Shown piece by piece: positions 2,931 through 36,433 of a stretch of DNA of 64,000 bases. The stretch is from Escherichia phage ALITA: the sequence record PP359570. The stretch is one strand, 5' to 3'. Position 1 is the stretch's first letter, and every line of letters starts with the position of its first letter. Below the pieces are notes generated by a model. It ran no database searches. It was not told the origin of the DNA and saw only the letters and a program-made list of their open reading frames with translations. Both the position numbers and the translations under genes were made by a program.

Positions 2931-4337
2931 ATGCCAGCACCAAAATCATGGGAACAATATAAAGAAGAATTAACACCCCTTGCTAAAAATCACAACATTC
3001 AGATTCTGGGTTATATTGGTGAATGGAAAGGGAGCAAGACTAAACTTAAGCTATCTTGCTCTGATCATGGGGAGTGGGAAAGTACCATAATCAATAGCTT
3101 TAAAACTAAAGGCGGTAAATGTTGCCCCGATTGCAATGGTCGTAGAAAAGTAACAGAAGAAAAGGAATGTATTTCCCTTGTTGATGTTGCTAAAGAAAGA
3201 GGGTTTACTTTTATAGGTCTTGCCGAAGAGTGGCGAGGTGTGCTAACAAAAATCCGCATAGTTTGCCCTAAACATGGAGAGTGGAACACCACGACCATTA
3301 GTGGTTTTAGGAAGGGACGTGGTTGTCCGGCATGTGCAAGTAATAAGCCGTTAACATGGGAAACAGAATTACCGATCTTGGAAGAGATAGCACAGAAGAA
3401 GGGGTATCAGGTGTTAGGGTACGTGGGAGAATGGAAAGGGATTGATACAAAACTTGATTTGTTGTGTCACTGTGGTAACAGATGGGATACTACAAGTATT
3501 AACAGTTTTAAACATGATCATGGTTGTCCTTTATGTGGGTATGAGAATACAAGGAAGGCACAAACAATACCCGACGATCAACATATTGCAGATTTCTTTT
3601 CTACAGGGAAATTTAAGGAAGGCACTATCTTTACCAATACAGGGAAACGTAGTTGTAGTAAAAACAAGGACATTATCTGGATGATCGAATGTCCTGTTTG
3701 CTCTCATGATGAGTATGTGCAAGCAGGTGTATGTGATGGTAAGTTTTATATGACACGTAGCGATCTTAAGGCTGGACACTTGCCCTGCCGCTGTGCAACT
3801 AACTCTCATTATACAGAAAATCAGATTACCTACAGGGTAAAAAAGGAAGTAGAAGGGAGAGGGTATGTCTGGGTAGGTTGGATCGGTAAACCGTCTATAA
3901 GACTGGGTAATTTTAAATATCTTTGTCTTGTTCATGGGGAACAAATTGGTAGTGCTTATCGCTTACTATATCAGGATAATGGTTGTCCACAATGTGCAGG
4001 TCATAGTCAGCAGCAATTGTATGTTAATGTTGTTAAAGATAATGGTATTATAGTTGCTCTTAAGTTTGGTATATCTAAAGATAGTGCTAGGAGATTAAAC
4101 ATTCAAAATAGGCGTAATATGTTTTTTATGGAGCGTATTTGTTTATATGATTTTAGTACAGTGAAGCAGTGTAAGGCTGCTGAAAGAGCTATAAAGAAAA
4201 AATTAAAAACTGGTATCTTAACAGCAAGAGAGTTGAAAGATGGTTATACAGAAACAGTAAGTGTTTCTGATTTGGAAAATCTTCAAAAAATTATTACACA
4301 ATATGGTGGCAAATTAGTATACAGTAAGGAGGTGTAA
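2931..4337 (+). CDS. multi-Zn-ribbon protein with C-terminal T5orf172/GIY-YIG-like domain (possible homing-type nuclease)
   Basis: 4-5 tandem ~50-aa repeats (xGYxGEWKGxxTKLxLxCxxHGEWxTTxxxF...GCPxC); C-terminus LKFGIS...ERAIKKKL resembles T5orf172. Confidence 0.55.
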   Translation: MPAPKSWEQYKEELTPLAKNHNIQILGYIGEWKGSKTKLKLSCSDHGEWESTIINSFKTKGGKCCPDCNGRRKVTEEKECISLVDVAKERGFTFIGLAEEWRGVLTKIRIVCPKHGEWNTTTISGFRKGRGCPACASNKPLTWETELPILEEIAQKKGYQVLGYVGEWKGIDTKLDLLCHCGNRWDTTSINSFKHDHGCPLCGYENTRKAQTIPDDQHIADFFSTGKFKEGTIFTNTGKRSCSKNKDIIWMIECPVCSHDEYVQAGVCDGKFYMTRSDLKAGHLPCRCATNSHYTENQITYRVKKEVEGRGYVWVGWIGKPSIRLGNFKYLCLVHGEQIGSAYRLLYQDNGCPQCAGHSQQQLYVNVVKDNGIIVALKFGISKDSARRLNIQNRRNMFFMERICLYDFSTVKQCKAAERAIKKKLKTGILTARELKDGYTETVSVSDLENLQKIITQYGGKLVYSKEV

Positions 4338-4889
4338 ATGCGGATTACTGATAAGTATGTGTTCTTCTTCTCGGCAAAAGATGAATTTAGCAACTGGTAT
4401 CTATCATCTTTTATTGAACCTTTAGCTCCCAAGTATAATAATTCTATTACAAGTTCTGTTGAATTTACTTGTGTGGAACAATATATGATGTGGAGAAAAG
4501 CATGTTTGTTTTATGATTACAGTATTGCATCTTCTATTTTAACCGGAGATCTAAGATATACAGGAGAAAAAGAACAAGCATATTATAAACGACTAGGCAG
4601 ATTAGTTAAAGATTATGATGAAGATACCTGGGCTTCTTTACGGGAGAAGATTGTCAAGCGTGGTTTGTATCTTAAATACACACAAAATGAAGATCTCAAA
4701 AATAAACTTATCGCTTACGCAGATAAGGAGTTCGTAGAGGCAAGCCCCTATGATTCTATTTATGGTATCAAAATGGGGATGTGGGATCGGGACGTGGAAA
4801 ATAAGGATTGTTGGAAAGGGCAAAATCTTTTAGGAAAATGGCATACAGACCTTGCTGTTTATCTAAAATCACAATCTGATATTTCCTGA
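4338..4889 (+). CDS. NADAR (YbiA/DUF1768) family protein
   Basis: VFFFSAKDEFSNWY and EFTCVEQYMMWRKA motifs typical of NADAR domain; start abuts previous stop. Confidence 0.75.
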   Translation: MRITDKYVFFFSAKDEFSNWYLSSFIEPLAPKYNNSITSSVEFTCVEQYMMWRKACLFYDYSIASSILTGDLRYTGEKEQAYYKRLGRLVKDYDEDTWASLREKIVKRGLYLKYTQNEDLKNKLIAYADKEFVEASPYDSIYGIKMGMWDRDVENKDCWKGQNLLGKWHTDLAVYLKSQSDIS

Positions 4890-8265: not shown

Positions 8266-8293
8266 TTGACAACTGAAATCAGTAAGCTATAAT
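8266..8293 (+). promoter_or_regulatory. sigma70-like promoter TTGACA-N16-TATAAT (serves 8331)
   Basis: Perfect consensus hexamers; no GC hairpin in this leader. Confidence 0.6.
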
Positions 8294-8330: not shown

Positions 8331-8696
8331 ATGGCTAAAAATATCAATGTTTCTGCTTATGCTACCCTGGCTAACACTGCTAAAATTGAACTATCCAGCA
8401 TTGAAGCGGTACATATTAGCGCCCGTCGCTGGTTTCAAAAGTCTTATGGTAATACTTATTTCTCTTTGATGGTTGACGTTGAGATCGGCGGTAAACTGAT
8501 TGAAGTCGTTAACGTTCCGTTTCAATATGGTTATGGTGATCATTTTGATACCGTTGCCCTAGAAGAGTTTAGCAAGGTTATCAACCTGGAAGGTAAAGAC
8601 TTTTCAAATTATGCTTACCTTTCCCGTTTTTGCCGTGATAATGGGATCGCTGTATACAGTCATGCAAGCGATGTTAAACGTAAAAAAGATTTATAA
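8331..8696 (+). CDS. hypothetical protein
   Basis: 121-aa ORF, AAGGA RBS. Confidence 0.7.
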   Translation: MAKNINVSAYATLANTAKIELSSIEAVHISARRWFQKSYGNTYFSLMVDVEIGGKLIEVVNVPFQYGYGDHFDTVALEEFSKVINLEGKDFSNYAYLSRFCRDNGIAVYSHASDVKRKKDL

Positions 8697-8970: not shown

Positions 8971-9029
8971 TTGACAAAGTATTTTATTACTATATAATGG
9001 TTTACATCGAGAGCGGGAATAGTTCCCGC
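8971..9029 (+). promoter_or_regulatory. promoter/hairpin cassette C6 (serves 9054)
   Basis: TTGACA-N16-TATAAT, hairpin GCGGGAA-TAG-TTCCCGC. Confidence 0.7.
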
Positions 9030-27825: not shown

Positions 27826-27832
27826 CACATAA

Positions 27833-27854
27833 ACCCGCTTCGGCGGGTTTTCTT
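27833..27854 (+). terminator. intrinsic terminator ACCCGC-TTCG-GCGGGT + T-run
   Basis: 28-nt sequence identical to the terminator at 2873-2900. Confidence 0.7.
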
Positions 27855-28197: not shown

Positions 28198-28233
28198 ATA
28201 AAGCCCCTAGAATCGCTTCTAGGGGGCTTTTGT
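28198..28233. terminator. bidirectional terminator at the convergence of + and - gene blocks
   Basis: AGCCCCTAGAA-TCGC-TTCTAGGGGGCT with an A-run on the left and a T-run on the right. Confidence 0.7.
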
Positions 28234-28297: not shown

Positions 28298-28555
28298 TTA
28301 AGAATGCATAAAATCTTCTTCAGGGCAGGTTGAGAGATAAGAGATGCACGTTGGGACAACAACAACATTATCTTTAAGGTTTGCAACCAAGCCTTTTGTA
28401 ATTCCAGCCACTGCCCCGTTAATATCTGCTTGACGGATACCGAAACCTTGTTGTGCGGATAGATAACAAAATCCCTCACCTTTCTGTTGATTATTATTGA
28501 AGTAATAAACGTAGTGCATCATAAAATGGTCTTTAACGATTTGTTCTGTGGTCAT
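28298..28555 (-). CDS. hypothetical protein
   Basis: 85-aa ORF with TAGGAGAA RBS; last gene of the minus block. Confidence 0.6.
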   Translation of the reverse strand: MTTEQIVKDHFMMHYVYYFNNNQQKGEGFCYLSAQQGFGIRQADINGAVAGITKGLVANLKDNVVVVPTCISYLSTCPEEDFMHS

Positions 28556-28571
28556 AATATTCTCCTATAAG

Positions 28572-28590
28572 AAAAGGGGCTTTCGCCCCC
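28572..28590 (-). terminator. hairpin GGGGC-GAAA-GCCCC + TTTT
   Basis: Just after the Sir2 stop; same hairpin recurs at 39854 and 52941. Confidence 0.55.
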
Positions 28591-28599
28591 TTGGTCAAG

Positions 28600-29412
28600 T
28601 TACTTAGTCAAATGATCTTCTATCATTTTTATGAAAGCAGGATTGCTAAAAGCCTCTGCTGCCTTTTCTCTATAAACAAAGACTCCTCTATCTTCGTAAA
28701 GAAGAGTTTCTTCGTAATTAATTCCTGGGTTAACAACAATCATTTTTGTACCCATATTAAGTGCAGGGAATAATTCCCAATTAAAATTGATAACTTGGTT
28801 TGAACATCCTACTACAACAACCAAATCTTGCATGGTCAAAGTATCAAACAAGTGAGCCATATCTGCATACAAAGGTGCAGCCTCACCAAAAAATACAACA
28901 TTAGGCTTCACCCAGTTATAATCATCTATGTTTATACTATTGTAACCAATGTCTACCAGTGTTTTGTAATCTCCAGGATGCATACGGTAAACTACTTCAG
29001 GAAGATACCCGTGCACGTGAATAACAGAATCCCTGTCCACACCTGCTCGCTCTAATAGATCATCAACGTTTGTTGTCAAGTTTACTACTTGGTTAGGATA
29101 TTCCTTAAACCACTTTGCTATTTGAATATGTGCAGCATTAGGTTGTACATCTTTAAGCTCAACACGTCTTTTGTTATAAAATTCGTGTGTTTTGGCATAC
29201 AAATCCATACCGTTCTCGTCTACACCACCGACCACTGGAAGATCTGGAGATGTTCTCACACGATAACCTGCTTGGAAAGCTCCAATATCGCAGACCTCTT
29301 CTAAATCATATTCTTCCCACAAGGCACGACCACTATCTGTGTCTGTTCGGAACGTTCGAATCCCACTGTCTGCACTTAAACCTGCGCCACTAACAAAAAT
29401 TACTCTTCGCAT
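28600..29412 (-). CDS. SIR2-family NAD-dependent deacylase / ADP-ribosyltransferase
   Basis: VSGAGLSADSGIRTFR NAD-binding motif at the N-terminus; length and VVVGCS...VN layout typical of CobB-like sirtuins. Confidence 0.85.
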   Translation of the reverse strand: MRRVIFVSGAGLSADSGIRTFRTDTDSGRALWEEYDLEEVCDIGAFQAGYRVRTSPDLPVVGGVDENGMDLYAKTHEFYNKRRVELKDVQPNAAHIQIAKWFKEYPNQVVNLTTNVDDLLERAGVDRDSVIHVHGYLPEVVYRMHPGDYKTLVDIGYNSINIDDYNWVKPNVVFFGEAAPLYADMAHLFDTLTMQDLVVVVGCSNQVINFNWELFPALNMGTKMIVVNPGINYEETLLYEDRGVFVYREKAAEAFSNPAFIKMIEDHLTK

Positions 29413-29954
29413 TCAATATCCTCTTCGTAATCATCATCCCAAGAAGATGCGTCGTAACGCTCTTCCTCTTCGAAATCCCAATTAATTTCTACTCCAAAAT
29501 CTAAAAACAATTTAACAATGTTTTCTGTAGAGTAGTATTTATCATAAGCGTTAGCTAGTTCCCAATACTTGTCACTCAATTTTTTATATTTAGGATCATT
29601 ATAATCATAATCTACTTTATAACCATAATCATACATCTCTTGTTCAGCTTTAAGCATAGCTTCTGGTGTAAGAAGATTAGGGAACGGACGATTTCTTTCT
29701 TTTAACTTAGAAACAATCCAGTTTGCAACATTTGCCACTTCACCATCTTGATTATCACCTAAACAACTTGCATAATCTCCATCTTCGTAAGTGCCTAAAT
29801 CCCCACAGACCACATGTACAATAGATGAATACGATCCACACGTTTCACAATCTGAAAAAGTGTCTACTGTTGTAATATCAATAGATAAAACTGGTAAAGC
29901 CATAGCTTCTTTCACACAAGCCTCCTCATATAATAACATATCATCAAAACCCAT
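29400..29954 (-). CDS. hypothetical acidic protein, translationally coupled to Sir2
   Basis: GGAGG RBS before ATG 29954 (MGFDDML); 13-nt overlap with the Sir2 start; C-terminus DDDYEEDIECEE. Confidence 0.6.
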   Translation of the reverse strand: MGFDDMLLYEEACVKEAMALPVLSIDITTVDTFSDCETCGSYSSIVHVVCGDLGTYEDGDYASCLGDNQDGEVANVANWIVSKLKERNRPFPNLLTPEAMLKAEQEMYDYGYKVDYDYNDPKYKKLSDKYWELANAYDKYYSTENIVKLFLDFGVEINWDFEEEERYDASSWDDDYEEDIECEE

Positions 29955-29970
29955 ATATCCTCCACACAAA

Positions 29971-29990
29971 TAAAGCCCCTGATTGGGGCT
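29971..29990 (-). terminator. hairpin AGCCCC-N5-GGGGCT (weak terminator or RNA-stability element)
   Basis: Sits in the 54-nt gap between two same-strand genes; poor T-run. Confidence 0.35.
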
Positions 29991-30008
29991 TTGGTTAAGT
30001 TTTACGGA

Positions 30009-30617
30009 TTATACCAGACTTTTAAGGTACTTGTCAAGGGCTTCTTGATCACCTTGACAAACATAGCAACGGAAGTCTTGAGCAGAAGGTTCTTTGTCCT
30101 CGTCCCAATCCCAATAAACAGTACCTTTATAACGTGAGCCTGGGAACTCGAAATATGCTGTATGAGTAATATGATGTGGGCCACCCCAAAACTGTATAAA
30201 AGTAAATTGAGGATACGCTGCTTTAACTGTATTTTCAAACCAAGTTTTACGATCTAATGCTTCGTTTATAAAATAAGCATGGCGTTCCATTTCATCCCAG
30301 TTTTTCCAAACGCATTTTTCATCCAGAGAAAAAACAAAATCCTCGCTGTTGAATTCATCTGTATCTTCCAAAATATCATAATCATGTGCACTAGGTATCC
30401 ACCATCCAGCTTCTAATAGTGCTTTCACGGGTACAAAACCTTTTTCAGCATATTGATCAAATTCTTTTACTCTACGTACAGTGCAGTATTCATCTTCACC
30501 ACCAATGTCCAGCAGACAAGCACCTTTGCGTCTTGCTGCAAGACCATGTGTATCAAAAACTACAACACTACCTTCACCATCTTCACGATCTACTTGATAT
30601 GCAACTTTTTGAGTCAT
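30009..30617 (-). CDS. hypothetical protein
   Basis: 202-aa ORF. Confidence 0.65.
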   Translation of the reverse strand: MTQKVAYQVDREDGEGSVVVFDTHGLAARRKGACLLDIGGEDEYCTVRRVKEFDQYAEKGFVPVKALLEAGWWIPSAHDYDILEDTDEFNSEDFVFSLDEKCVWKNWDEMERHAYFINEALDRKTWFENTVKAAYPQFTFIQFWGGPHHITHTAYFEFPGSRYKGTVYWDWDEDKEPSAQDFRCYVCQGDQEALDKYLKSLV

Positions 30618-30618
30618 A

Positions 30619-30741
30619 TTACCCCCAATGTATATGGGAAATTAACCAAAAGATAAATTCCCAAAAACACCAACCAAGAAAAGTTAATGGAATTATAAAA
30701 GCTATCAGAGCAGTCTTCCAGCCTTTCCACAATGTTTCCAC
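30619..30741 (-). CDS. 40-aa Trp-rich membrane peptide (hand-called, GTG start)
   Basis: GTG overlaps the methyltransferase stop (TAGTG) after GGAGGAATA; stop lies 1 nt before the next ATG. Confidence 0.4.
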   Translation of the reverse strand: METLWKGWKTALIAFIIPLTFLGWCFWEFIFWLISHIHWG

Positions 30742-31730
30742 TATTCCTCCATACATTTAAGAATATGTGCAATGACAGGTATAGTCCAACCGTTACCTAA
30801 CATCTTATATGCTTGTGTGTTACTACTCACTTTAAAGTAGTCATCTGGCACACCTTGCAAACGGCAACACTCTTTAACGGTTAACTTTCTATAATGTACG
30901 CCTTCACTCAATTTTTCAAAAGCATCTAAATATCTTCCAGGTGGAATGTAAGCTAATAGTACGTCTTTCGGCACAGTCGTGAGGCAACGAGTTTTTTCAC
31001 TGTCCTGAACTTCCAAACAATGTACCAAACGATCAGTTTTAGATGTACTACGTTTGCCATTTTCATTAATTCTACGCCCATATATTGCTGCTGGATAAAA
31101 AACCAGTTGTCTGCGACTCTTTTCAAAATACTGTTCTATATTACCACCTTTGGCATAATTTGCATCTATGCAATAAGCCTTATCTCTGTCTACAATACTA
31201 TCATCTTCAATGATATCTTGCAACACTTCATTGGTAATATCCCAGGGTTTTATTTCCCAGTTGCACCAGTATAAACGTTGTCTATTCTGTGCCGTGAAAT
31301 CTGCGGAGTTAATGAATACGGGATCAACACCTAAGTAACTTGTGATCACGTTTTCCCACTCCACTTTCATCTTAACGTTTTCAAGCATGAACTTAACATT
31401 AGGGTTAAACTTTTTAATATGTTCAAGAATCTCAACATATTCGAAGAATAGCTTAGATCGCGGATCTTGAAAGTTCAAACCCTTACCAGAAGAAGAGAAG
31501 CCTTGACACGGACTACCACCTAACAAAAGATCAATTTCTCCCCACGGGATATCCCATTCTCTCCATTTTGTAACATCACCTAACTGAATAATATCTGGAA
31601 AATTTGCTTGGCTTTCAGCTATGGCGAATTTGTCTAATTCTGAAGCATAATATGTATCTACGTCAATACCTGCACTTTTTAGCGCAAGCATTCCTCCTGA
31701 CATGCCATCAAAAAGACTTAAAACTTTCAT
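30741..31730 (-). CDS. DNA (cytosine-5)-methyltransferase
   Basis: Motif I LFDGMSGG, IV GGSPCQGFS, VI ENV, VIII QNRQR, X GNGW. Confidence 0.9.
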   Translation of the reverse strand: MKVLSLFDGMSGGMLALKSAGIDVDTYYASELDKFAIAESQANFPDIIQLGDVTKWREWDIPWGEIDLLLGGSPCQGFSSSGKGLNFQDPRSKLFFEYVEILEHIKKFNPNVKFMLENVKMKVEWENVITSYLGVDPVFINSADFTAQNRQRLYWCNWEIKPWDITNEVLQDIIEDDSIVDRDKAYCIDANYAKGGNIEQYFEKSRRQLVFYPAAIYGRRINENGKRSTSKTDRLVHCLEVQDSEKTRCLTTVPKDVLLAYIPPGRYLDAFEKLSEGVHYRKLTVKECCRLQGVPDDYFKVSSNTQAYKMLGNGWTIPVIAHILKCMEE

Positions 31731-32169: not shown

Positions 32170-32198
32170 AGTTTATTCGAAAAAACTGGTGTTGTCAA
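32170..32198 (-). promoter_or_regulatory. sigma70-like promoter TTGACA-N17-TAAACT (minus strand)
   Basis: Immediately downstream of terminator 32200-32220, upstream of 31733..32143. Confidence 0.5.
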
Positions 32199-32199
32199 C

Positions 32200-32220
32200 A
32201 AAAAACCCGCCGAAGCGGGT
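32200..32220 (-). terminator. intrinsic terminator ACCCGC-TTCG-GCGGGT + T5 (minus strand)
   Basis: Same hairpin as at 2875 and 27833 but on the other strand. Confidence 0.7.
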
Positions 32221-32225
32221 TTATA

Positions 32226-35770: not shown

Positions 35771-36433
35771 TTATTTAATATTCAATTTTGCACAAAGACG
35801 TTGTACCGCTTTGGCATCGAACAAACTCCCACGAATAGTTCTCTTTCCTGATTCATTCAGATGTTTTGCAATCGTCATATATGGCGTTTTACAAGCTCTG
35901 TATGCAACTAAAGAATCTTTTAAAGAAAGCGCAAACTCTTTTGAGCGTTTTGCTTCTTCCGTTTTCGTATAATCTGTTCTTTTGTATTTAGGGTTTGCTG
36001 CACCAAGAAGCGTTCCCTTCGCTTTTGCTACTTTAAGGCTCTTCTTAACACGATCAGATATTGCACGAGCCTCTTCTTCTGCCAGAACTGCTAAAATATT
36101 TATTATCATATTTTCAGCGGAGGGCATAGTTGCTATTCGTACATTAATCATCTCTAACAAGGTTGCAACAGAAGCTGTGTTACGTCCAAGACGGTCAACC
36201 TTAGCAACAACAAGTGTAGCACCTGTTTCTTTGCAAAGATTAACAGCTTTTACAAGCTCTCTACGTTGCTTCCAATCGCCTTTACCCGAATAAAACTCTG
36301 CAAAGCTACCTACAATAGTATAATTTTCTTGTGAATCCAGGAAGCGTTGGATATCTGCTTCCTGTGATTCTATACCATACTGGTTGCCTTGTTGTTTCTT
36401 CTTAGAAAGTCGATGATACAGTACAAACTTCAT
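35771..36433 (-). CDS. small serine recombinase (resolvase/invertase type, C-terminal HTH)
   Basis: YHRLSKKKQ catalytic-Ser motif, VAKVDRLGRN, EEEARAISDRVK, C-terminal HTH IAKHLNESGKRTIRG. Confidence 0.85.
   Translation of the reverse strand: MKFVLYHRLSKKKQQGNQYGIESQEADIQRFLDSQENYTIVGSFAEFYSGKGDWKQRRELVKAVNLCKETGATLVVAKVDRLGRNTASVATLLEMINVRIATMPSAENMIINILAVLAEEEARAISDRVKKSLKVAKAKGTLLGAANPKYKRTDYTKTEEAKRSKEFALSLKDSLVAYRACKTPYMTIAKHLNESGKRTIRGSLFDAKAVQRLCAKLNIK

Follow-up and report, generated by a model that had tools for sequence, protein, structure and literature searches.

A predicted zinc-less CobB-like sirtuin and its acidic operon neighbour in a phi92-like Escherichia phage

In a 64,000-nucleotide stretch of Escherichia phage ALITA (sequence record PP359570; this whole stretch is the window below), we studied a sirtuin (Sir2) gene together with the minus-strand genes around it. 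An earlier note, made from the sequence alone, had described here a single translationally coupled string in which Sir2 is joined to an acidic partner and a tryptophan-rich membrane peptide. Every open reading frame (ORF) and junction of that description is present when the minus strand is read (Table 1). The TAG stop of a C5 cytosine methyltransferase shares one base, the G at 30741, with the GTG start of a 40-residue peptide, and this choice of start is backed by phage phi92, which has ATG at the same codon position. A single nt lies between the TAA stop of the peptide and the ATG that opens a 202-residue ORF at 30617 (TAA-T-ATG, 30619/30617), the 184-residue ORF (ATG at 29954, stop at 29400) overlaps the Sir2 ATG at 29412 by 13 nt, and an 85-residue ORF (28555-28298) comes after Sir2. 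The compositional claims hold as well, with 6 Trp among the 40 residues of the peptide and a single hydrophobic segment, and with an isoelectric point of 4.05 and a net charge of -31 for the 184-residue protein, which ranks second in acidity among the 95 ORFs of the window. The hairpin upstream of the acidic ORF, which had been called weak, exists and is kept in all relatives examined.

The window comes from a phi92-like Justusliebigvirus (subfamily Stephanstirmvirinae). Over a 5-kb stretch around the locus, identity is 98.7% with published Justusliebigvirus genomes (VivaForever, vB-Eco-KMB37 and others) and 97.2% with the type phage phi92, and the ORFs correspond to phi92 gp043 (the Dcm-type methyltransferase), gp042 (the 40-residue ORF), gp041, gp039, gp038 and gp037, all of which had been annotated before. 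The label of gp038 in the GenBank entry of phi92 is 'Sir2 (NAD-dependent deacetylase)', elsewhere it is 'sirtuin family protein', and the gene carries an annotation in dozens of GenBank records. The Sir2 feature is already known and annotated, and the sirtuin family and two functional hypotheses for it are in the literature. Four GenBank records named 'Campylobacter phage' (A150, MG065639.1; A145, MG065645.1; C3, MG065656.1; A110a, MG065689.1) also match the window at about 95-98%, a figure that stands for nucleotide identity over the locus region and for protein identity in the case of gp039; judged by this likeness, their Campylobacter jejuni host labels look doubtful. Elsewhere in the window, a serine recombinase/resolvase domain protein is encoded at 35771-36433 on the minus strand (PF00239, E = 8e-22; 'putative site-specific recombinase' in EmilieFrey) in a phage otherwise regarded as lytic.

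Table 1. Features of the sirtuin locus, of the RNA-repair module in the same window, and of the compared phage stretches
Feature	Position	Strand	Details
Dcm-like C5 cytosine DNA methyltransferase, phi92 gp043	30741..31730	-	PF00145 E = 1.5e-43; TIGR00675 dcm E = 9e-41
40-residue Trp-rich peptide, phi92 gp042	30619..30741	-	GTG start overlapping methyltransferase stop; one predicted transmembrane segment
202-residue protein, phi92 gp041, phrog_8514	30009..30617	-	Last gene of upstream operon; 3' end holds predicted promoter of unit B
Consensus sigma-70 promoter (predicted), TTGACA-N18-TATAAT, TG extended -10	30008..30037	-	12/12 match; inside gp041 3' end
8-bp GC-rich hairpin + U-rich tract	29972..29992	-	Terminator-like scan; -14.4 kcal/mol, z = -2.1
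184-residue highly acidic protein, phi92 gp039, phrog_9509	29400..29954	-	SDCETCG knuckle, Cys64, helical domain, disordered Asp/Glu tail
270-residue sirtuin, phi92 gp038	28600..29412	-	PF02146, phrog_2162
Terminator-like hairpin between Sir2 and 85-residue gene	28574..28592	-	-15 kcal/mol, z = -2.7; terminator in Paula annotation
85-residue protein, phi92 gp037, phrog_15991	28298..28555	-	PHROG E = 4e-52; last gene of leftward arm
Strong bidirectional terminator where leftward and rightward arms converge	28204..28225		-18.3 kcal/mol, z = -4.3; both strands in Paula annotation
Terminator hairpin (32222-32203) with promoter-like site (32198-32170) directly after	32170..32222	-	Promoter 10/12; hairpin -13.8 kcal/mol, z = -3.6
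RNA-repair module	59329..62078	-	About 30 kb from Sir2
AAA_33 kinase	59329..59733	-	RNA-repair module
Rnl1-type RNA ligase	59734..60666	-	RNA-repair module
Calcineurin-like phosphoesterase (Metallophos_2)	60668..61219	-	RNA-repair module
cREC_REC domain protein	61737..62078	-	PF20274, E = 2.9e-13
Swapped Sir2 ORF in OR062526.1	4495-5310 of compared stretch		Corresponds to window ~29420-28650; three-way alignment
gp039-like/Dps-like contexts	pEa_SNUABM_12 3513-4528; Escherichia phage Turkey5 2162-3378 (compared stretches)		
FKP3 features	3854-4504 and 1562-2394 of compared PP895363.1 stretch		HNH insertion; C5-methyltransferase-like gene + 47-residue peptide

The sirtuin, gp038, is a stand-alone domain whose only Pfam match is PF02146, with 81.1 bits against a gathering cut-off of 24 (E = 1.3e-22), and it falls in phrog_2162 with E = 1e-105. 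Its best solved relative is E. coli CobB (1S5P, E = 1.5e-18), followed by archaeal and bacterial Sir2 proteins and SIRT5. The motif for binding nicotinamide adenine dinucleotide (NAD+), GAGLSADSGIRTFR, occupies residues 9-22 (GAGxS...GIxxFR type) and aligns with that of CobB; further along are FYNKRR at 78-83, TTNVDD at 113, HVHG with the catalytic His134, VVFFGE at 172 and GCSN at 202. The NAD, TQNID-type and HG motifs are invariant in 7 divergent phage homologues, and an alignment of T5-like, rV5-like, Seunavirus, Phapecoctavirus, FKP3 and metagenomic phage homologues retains GAGLSADSGIRTFR, TTNVDDLLERAG, the HG of His134, KPNVVFFGE and a family-specific GCSNxVINFNWELFP block. FYNKRR aligns to FYNARR of CobB, and FYNxRR is found in every phage homologue aligned. 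We take the Tyr and Arg of this motif to be the class III pair to which, in CobB and SIRT5, the succinyl-lysine carboxylate binds, and gp038 has this Tyr-x-x-Arg pair as Tyr79/Arg82. No zinc-binding Cys4 module lies between HG and FGE, where residues 135-172 contain zero Cys (the protein has only C41 and C203), and the segment keeps its normal length despite the loss. Loss of the zinc cysteines has also been reported for the KVP40-like phage Sir2 (PMC5107563).

Other model searches set gp038 apart from its characterized relatives. The equivalog cut-offs of the NCBIfam CobB models are not reached (NF040867 / NF001753, 87 vs 320 bits, 106.9 vs 243 bits), and none of the PADLOC defence SIR2 models is credibly matched, the sole PADLOC match being one over 37 residues to an unrelated candidate model (E = 0.0066, 13.8 bits). 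In Pfam and PADLOC searches of gp038 and its neighbours, we found no ThsB-TIR, HerA or pAgo partner and no fused sensor domain. Residues 46-75 of gp038 form a variable insertion, some 30 residues long, that is missing from the rV5-like and Seunavirus enzymes. We conclude that gp038 is, by its sequence signatures, a zinc-less CobB-like sirtuin with an intact active site, predicted to be catalytically competent; it is not an NADase of the defence type, nor a catalytically dead decoy.

The acidic protein, gp039, comes from a very small orphan family in which a Cys knuckle is conserved. The SDCETCG (CxxC) knuckle and Cys64 are invariant in its alignment; the C-terminal Cys is invariant in the same alignment and yet missing from some relatives. 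The family occurs in 133 phage records, and its homologues make up 6 word-indexed clusters; scanning 1.84 billion proteins exhaustively gave 12 representative clusters. The AlphaFold2 model of gp039, a confident one (predicted local distance difference test score of 84.5), adds an N-terminal beta-hairpin domain to the parts listed in Table 1, and its only fold matches in BFVD are uncharacterised phage proteins (ukendt, pEa_SNUABM_47, RaK2, Serratia BF). There is a weak resemblance to the L32 zinc ribbon, below threshold. The label 'putative aminoacyl-tRNA synthetase' that gp039 carries in EmilieFrey and PaulScherrer is unsupported by our searches. We also rejected gp039 as the zinc module of a 'split' sirtuin, since the HG-FGE segment of gp038 has a normal length and since rV5-like, T5-like and other phages have zinc-less sirtuins without gp039.

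Mapping promoters and hairpins onto the gene string, we found that it is interrupted. The stop codon of gp041 falls within the -10 hexamer of a consensus sigma-70 promoter at 30037-30008. A scan for TTGACA-N16-18-TATAAT detected 3 perfect sites in 64 kb where 0.11 were expected, and 0 of 100 shuffles reached 3. The other two sites, at 8266-8293 and 8971-8998 on the plus strand, the first of them in the gap upstream of ORF 8331-8696, probably serve the rightward arm as early promoters. At the Sir2 locus, TTGACA-N18-TGGTATA(A/G)T is kept in phi92, Paula, EmilieFrey, two Phapecoctaviruses, Klebsiella phage FKP3 and a metagenomic relative, despite divergence of the surrounding coding sequence, and a promoter function is predicted for it. 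About 9 bases downstream of the expected start site lies the hairpin at 29992-29972, followed by a GGAGG ribosome-binding site and the start of gp039. This hairpin is conserved in all relatives, with one wobble change, one inserted pair and no true compensatory changes. It probably terminates the upstream operon and/or stabilises the gp039-Sir2 messenger RNA as a 5' stem-loop.

Because this promoter and the terminator-like hairpins interrupt the gene string, we favour two operons. The single coupled string of the earlier note is broken by the promoter at 30037-30008 and by two terminator-like hairpins (29992-29972 and 28592-28574), and we consider it rather more probable than not, without great confidence, that two transcription units of an ordinary phage kind make up the locus. 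Unit A would run from the promoter-like site near 32198 through gp044, the Dcm-type methyltransferase, the 40-residue membrane peptide and gp041; the element at 32170-32222 marks the opening of this operon. The 20-nt palindromic hairpin in that element, AAACCCGCTTCGGCGGGTTT, is a bidirectional terminator-like element found twice in the window, at 27831-27850 in the rightward arm and at 32203-32222 upstream of the methyltransferase operon. Unit B would start from the sigma-70 promoter in the last 30 nt of gp041 and comprise the hairpin, gp039, the sirtuin and then, past a leaky hairpin, gp037. Since unit B has its own consensus promoter of the host type, it is most likely read early in infection by unmodified host RNA polymerase.

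The tight coupling within unit B does not stand out, because overlaps and abutments are the default in this type of genome: across the corresponding 45 kb of EmilieFrey, the two genes of 50% of neighbouring same-strand pairs overlap or sit within 2 nt of each other. Moreover, the 13-nt overlap of gp039 and Sir2 is not conserved, being replaced by an 11-nt gap in EmilieFrey and by overlaps of 1 or 16 nt in other relatives. In EmilieFrey a GAA-to-TAA change (near window position 29424) cuts 8 residues off gp039, removing the ...EEDIECEE tail with its conserved Cys and abolishing the overlap; tail and overlap are dispensable in that phage. At window positions 29415-29435, the GAG/GAA codons of the acidic tail also form a Shine-Dalgarno-like GAGGA for Sir2, and tail codons serve doubly in this way in Phapecoctavirus and the metagenomic relative too (GAGGAGGA).

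The sirtuin family is far more widespread than gp039. By tblastn it is found in 983 phage records from Escherichia, Salmonella, Klebsiella, Vibrio and other hosts, covering T5-like, rV5-like, Seunavirus, KVP40-like and jumbo phages. The window Sir2 is 37-62% identical to members of the phage Sir2/CobB clade; its closest homologues outside the subfamily are T5-like (about 60%), and it shares 47-56% identity over 99% of its length, together with family-specific motifs, with the rV5-like and Seunavirus enzymes. Gene neighbourhoods differ among these phages. In rV5-like and Seunavirus phages Sir2 directly follows genes for an RNA ligase and a cREC protein, accompanied in Seunavirus by a P-loop kinase; in T5-like phages it lies among small ORFs between nrdD and primase, in Vibrio phage nt-1 before topoisomerase, and in jumbo phage Turkey5 it adjoins a Nudix gene. 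Removal of 2'-phosphates in the repair of transfer RNA (tRNA) has been proposed for the main viral sirtuin clade on the basis of three independent types of neighbourhood (Iyer et al. 2022; PMC9503650, section 3.7.3), and deacetylation for the zinc-less phage Sir2/CobB (PMC5107563). On sequence the window Sir2 is a member of the clade as drawn by Iyer et al. (2022), which takes in rV5-like, Mydo, jumbo and SP15-type phages. Its immediate neighbours are gp039 and gp037, and none of the RNA ligase, cREC, kinase, 2H, Nudix or HAD genes of the clade adjoins it in the window.

Within Stephanstirmvirinae, gp039 stands immediately upstream of Sir2, overlapping or nearly abutting it, in Justusliebigvirus, Phapecoctavirus and the metagenomic relative, with gp039 identities of 38-54%, and this adjacency is seen only in Stephanstirmvirinae. 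In jumbo phage Turkey5 the gp039-like gene is about 29 kb from Sir2, and in Erwinia phage pEa_SNUABM_12 no Sir2 is found among its neighbours. Instead, the gp039-like gene of these jumbo phages is close to a Dps-like gene (labelled 'starvation-inducible DNA-binding protein' or DpsA), which follows it directly downstream in pEa_SNUABM_12 and is separated from it by one gene in Turkey5, with thymidine kinase a few genes downstream in both jumbo genera; this suggests a conserved context of gp039 unrelated to Sir2. In Klebsiella phage FKP3 (PP895363.1), an HNH endonuclease gene sits between gp039 and Sir2.

Sir2 can also move on its own. The Phapecoctavirus vB_EcoM_10C3_SA_NWU (OR062526.1) carries a Justusliebig-type Sir2 that matches the window along the ORF with a nucleotide identity of 94-100%, whereas its gp039 and gp037 flanks are of the Phapecocta type, sharing about 50% identity with the window and 97-100% with a sister phage, the Sir2 of which is only 65% identical. 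Phage phAPEC8_ev052 also has a 97% Sir2 allele. By its alignment, OR062526.1 represents a natural exchange of Sir2 between genera as a single-gene cassette.

These patterns divide the proposal of an inhibitor/enzyme pair made in the earlier note, and the check on co-conservation attached to it. What stands is that the two genes are co-located throughout Stephanstirmvirinae, down to 38% gp039 identity. What fails is adjacency wherever the Sir2 family occurs, as seen from the 133 records with gp039 against 983 with Sir2, from Turkey5 and pEa_SNUABM_12, from the HNH insertion and from the swap of Sir2 alone. Because gp039 is not co-conserved with Sir2 beyond Stephanstirmvirinae, the idea of an obligate pair is weakened, and we regard it as largely, though not wholly, refuted. 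From sequence comparison, gp039 is best described as a lineage-restricted operon neighbour, not an obligate subunit or inhibitor of the sirtuin, and the gp039/Sir2 pair is mostly ordinary.

The remaining genes of the string fit the same division into two units. The methyltransferase lies in the upstream operon, outside the Sir2 unit, and is absent from the corresponding position in Phapecoctavirus relatives. The 40-residue peptide differs from phi92 gp042 by only 2 synonymous and 2 conservative changes, reaches a Kyte-Doolittle maximum of 1.94 at residues 12-30, and has no PHROG family. It is found only in records of at least 96.7% identity that also have the methyltransferase, and its divergence is too low for a selection test; the two genes are limited to the E. 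coli Justusliebigvirus group, Phapecoctaviruses being without both. At the counterpart site FKP3 has a gene for a 229-residue C5-methyltransferase-like protein (FPPC motif) followed by an unrelated 47-residue membrane peptide with a C-terminal hydrophobic segment. As a part of the Sir2 system the peptide was rejected, since it sits in the methyltransferase operon, is absent from Phapecoctavirus and is unrelated to the FKP3 peptide. We assign it to the methyltransferase module, with no link to Sir2, and plausibly it is a small membrane protein of that module.

The protein gp041 is conserved with the block at 57-69% identity, and its fold search gave no informative match, only a weak NTF2/cystatin-like one; with this and with no Pfam match, we rejected a role for it in the processing of ADP-ribose (as a Macro, Nudix, 2H or cREC enzyme). 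No Macro domain was matched in Pfam by gp039, gp041 or gp037, and neither the gp039 nor the gp041 model has a Macro-like fold. At the other end of unit B, gp037 has a counterpart at the same position in Phapecoctavirus (47% identical) and a candidate one, an ORF of 86 residues, in the metagenomic relative; no match was found in FKP3.

In the mechanism that we favour, gp038 would cleave NAD+ and pass the ADP-ribose to a negatively charged acceptor held by Tyr79/Arg82. The nicotinamide released may be recycled by Nampt and PRPP synthetase, which relatives carry just beyond the window. In EmilieFrey, the segment 139344-145542, just past the right end of the window, encodes PRPP synthetase and Nampt (NAD+ salvage), then a cluster of 14 tRNA genes; both sets of genes are relevant to a phage in which a sirtuin that consumes NAD+ is found together with an RNA-repair module. 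As acceptor we rank first, on the model of CobB and SIRT5, a lysine of a host or phage protein that bears an acyl group (acetyl or succinyl), because of the CobB/SIRT5 homology and the FGE loop, although even this candidate, drawn by analogy, falls somewhat short of an even chance. The option of a host-protein deacylase or ADP-ribosyltransferase had been raised in the earlier note and fits the sequence, in which CobB/SIRT5 are closest and the NAD-binding motif, the His, the FGE and the Tyr/Arg pair are predicted to be intact. Ranked second, and doubtful by comparison, is the acceptor proposed by Iyer et al., the 2'-phosphate of a tRNA that has been repaired, an option that we keep because of the neighbourhoods in other lineages and the complete repair module elsewhere in this genome. 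Protein ADP-ribosylation or another target would account for the remainder.

The strongest rival makes gp038 an RNA-repair sirtuin that acts like KptA/Tpt1, moving the 2'-phosphate of ligated tRNA junctions onto NAD+ and working with the RNA ligase, kinase, calcineurin-like phosphoesterase and cREC protein of the phage against damage by host anticodon nucleases, with gp039 unrelated to it. Besides the clade proposal, this explanation draws on the RNA ligase-cREC-(kinase)-Sir2 order that we confirmed in rV5-like and Seunavirus phages, on the likeness of the window Sir2 to those enzymes, on the full repair module in the window, and on the tRNA gene cluster in relatives; the phage kinase is without a phosphatase domain, which would make a 2'-phosphate route plausible, and the Tyr/Arg pair could hold a phosphate. 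However, about 30 kb separate Sir2 from the module, a promoter of its own is predicted for it, the T5-like homologues have no RNA ligase nearby, the FGE loop and the likeness to CobB/SIRT5 are typical of peptide-binding deacylases, and the activity itself is a candidate by analogy. We therefore hold this explanation as a tentative one, and on the whole unlikely. Much further down is the view of gp038 as an NAD+-depleting effector like ThsA, DSR or SIR2-HerA, for example in superinfection exclusion, or as a decoy that titrates activators. Phages do face Sir2-based bacterial immunity, and the SIR2 superfamily fold is common to both; nothing else favours it. The PADLOC match is negligible beside PF02146, there are no HerA, TIR or pAgo genes nearby, and the active site appears to be intact across distant phage families, which speaks against the decoy that the earlier note had suggested. 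Deliberate depletion of NAD+ also fits badly with a lytic phage whose relatives have NAD+ salvage genes. This view is largely refuted, and we give it very little weight.

A further alternative sees an enzyme with a dedicated partner, in which gp039 would bind the sirtuin as inhibitor, adaptor, substrate mimic or substrate, forming a Stephanstirmvirinae-specific NAD+-dependent module for host takeover or counter-defence. The conserved adjacency with start/stop coupling in three lineages, the common dedicated and conserved promoter predicted for both genes, and the extreme acidity of gp039, reminiscent of known protein or DNA mimics, all argue for it. On the other hand, about 85% of Sir2-bearing phage records have no detectable gp039, the jumbo phages keep the genes apart and place gp039 close to a Dps-like gene instead, and a Justusliebig-type Sir2 allele functions in a Phapecoctavirus where the gp039 next to it shares only 38% identity with the native neighbour of the allele. 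To these we add the HNH gene that splits the pair in FKP3, the truncated gp039 tail and lost overlap in EmilieFrey, and the genomic norm of overlapping genes. We consider such a module unlikely, and a lineage-specific functional link between gp039 and Sir2 perhaps slightly less likely still. A specific version, in which the Stephanstirmvirinae sirtuin left the RNA-repair cluster and was enlisted along with gp039 in an early module dedicated to these two genes, strikes us as improbable; there gp039 might regulate, target or be modified by the sirtuin, for example as a deacylated or ADP-ribosylated acidic mimic or as an NAD+ gate. If true, the module would be a previously undescribed phage sirtuin/partner system for host takeover or counter-defence.

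Several points weigh against our own preference for two ordinary units with a deacylating sirtuin. All Stephanstirmvirinae lineages that we examined keep gp039 and Sir2 tightly adjacent, even where the identity of gp039 falls to 38%. A promoter followed by a terminator-like hairpin is an unusual order, and both promoter and start site are predicted only. The RNA ligase-cREC-kinase cluster around Sir2 in rV5-like and Seunavirus phages would, by analogy, favour RNA repair over deacylation, and the sequence leaves acyl-lysine and RNA 2'-phosphate as two leading options for the target. The literature that we searched held no experimental paper on any member of the phage sirtuin clade.

For this clade of about 1,000 phage records there are two concrete hypotheses, lysine deacylation and removal of 2'-phosphates from tRNA, and phages of the BASEL collection such as EmilieFrey (Bas61) are tractable for telling them apart, with the gp039-Sir2 operon of Stephanstirmvirinae as a test case. 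Our analysis adds the predicted structure of promoter, hairpins and operons, the description of gp039 as an orphan with a Cys knuckle that is not a general partner, and the apparent movement of Sir2 between genera as a single-gene cassette.

Among known systems, the defence SIR2 effectors (ThsA, DSR1/2, SIR2-HerA, SIR2-pAgo) share with gp038 the superfamily fold and the substrate NAD+, but gp038 has no credible match to their models, lacks their partner genes and is encoded by a phage in a lytic genome. In SirTM-Macro pairs a sirtuin is co-transcribed with a small partner gene, as gp038 would be; in contrast to them, no Macro-domain gene is adjacent and no Pfam domain is found in the neighbours gp039, gp041 and gp037. 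E. coli CobB and human SIRT5, class III lysine deacetylases/desuccinylases, have the NAD motifs, catalytic His, FGE and Tyr-x-x-Arg in common with gp038, which differs in lacking the zinc cysteines and in scoring far below the NCBIfam CobB cut-offs, its activity being predicted. The orthologues in phi92 and published Justusliebigvirus genomes (VivaForever, arall, EmilieFrey/Bas61) have an identical gene set and order at 97-99% nucleotide identity and differ in nothing substantive, apart from the end of gp039, which is annotated variously (premature stop in EmilieFrey). The phage Sir2/CobB clade of KVP40-like, T5-like, rV5-like, Seunavirus and jumbo phages shares with the window Sir2 its motifs, including GCSNxVINFNWELFP, and the loss of the zinc cysteines, whereas the Stephanstirmvirinae Sir2 lies outside the RNA ligase-cREC-kinase cluster, behind gp039 and its own predicted promoter, and carries the insertion at residues 46-75.

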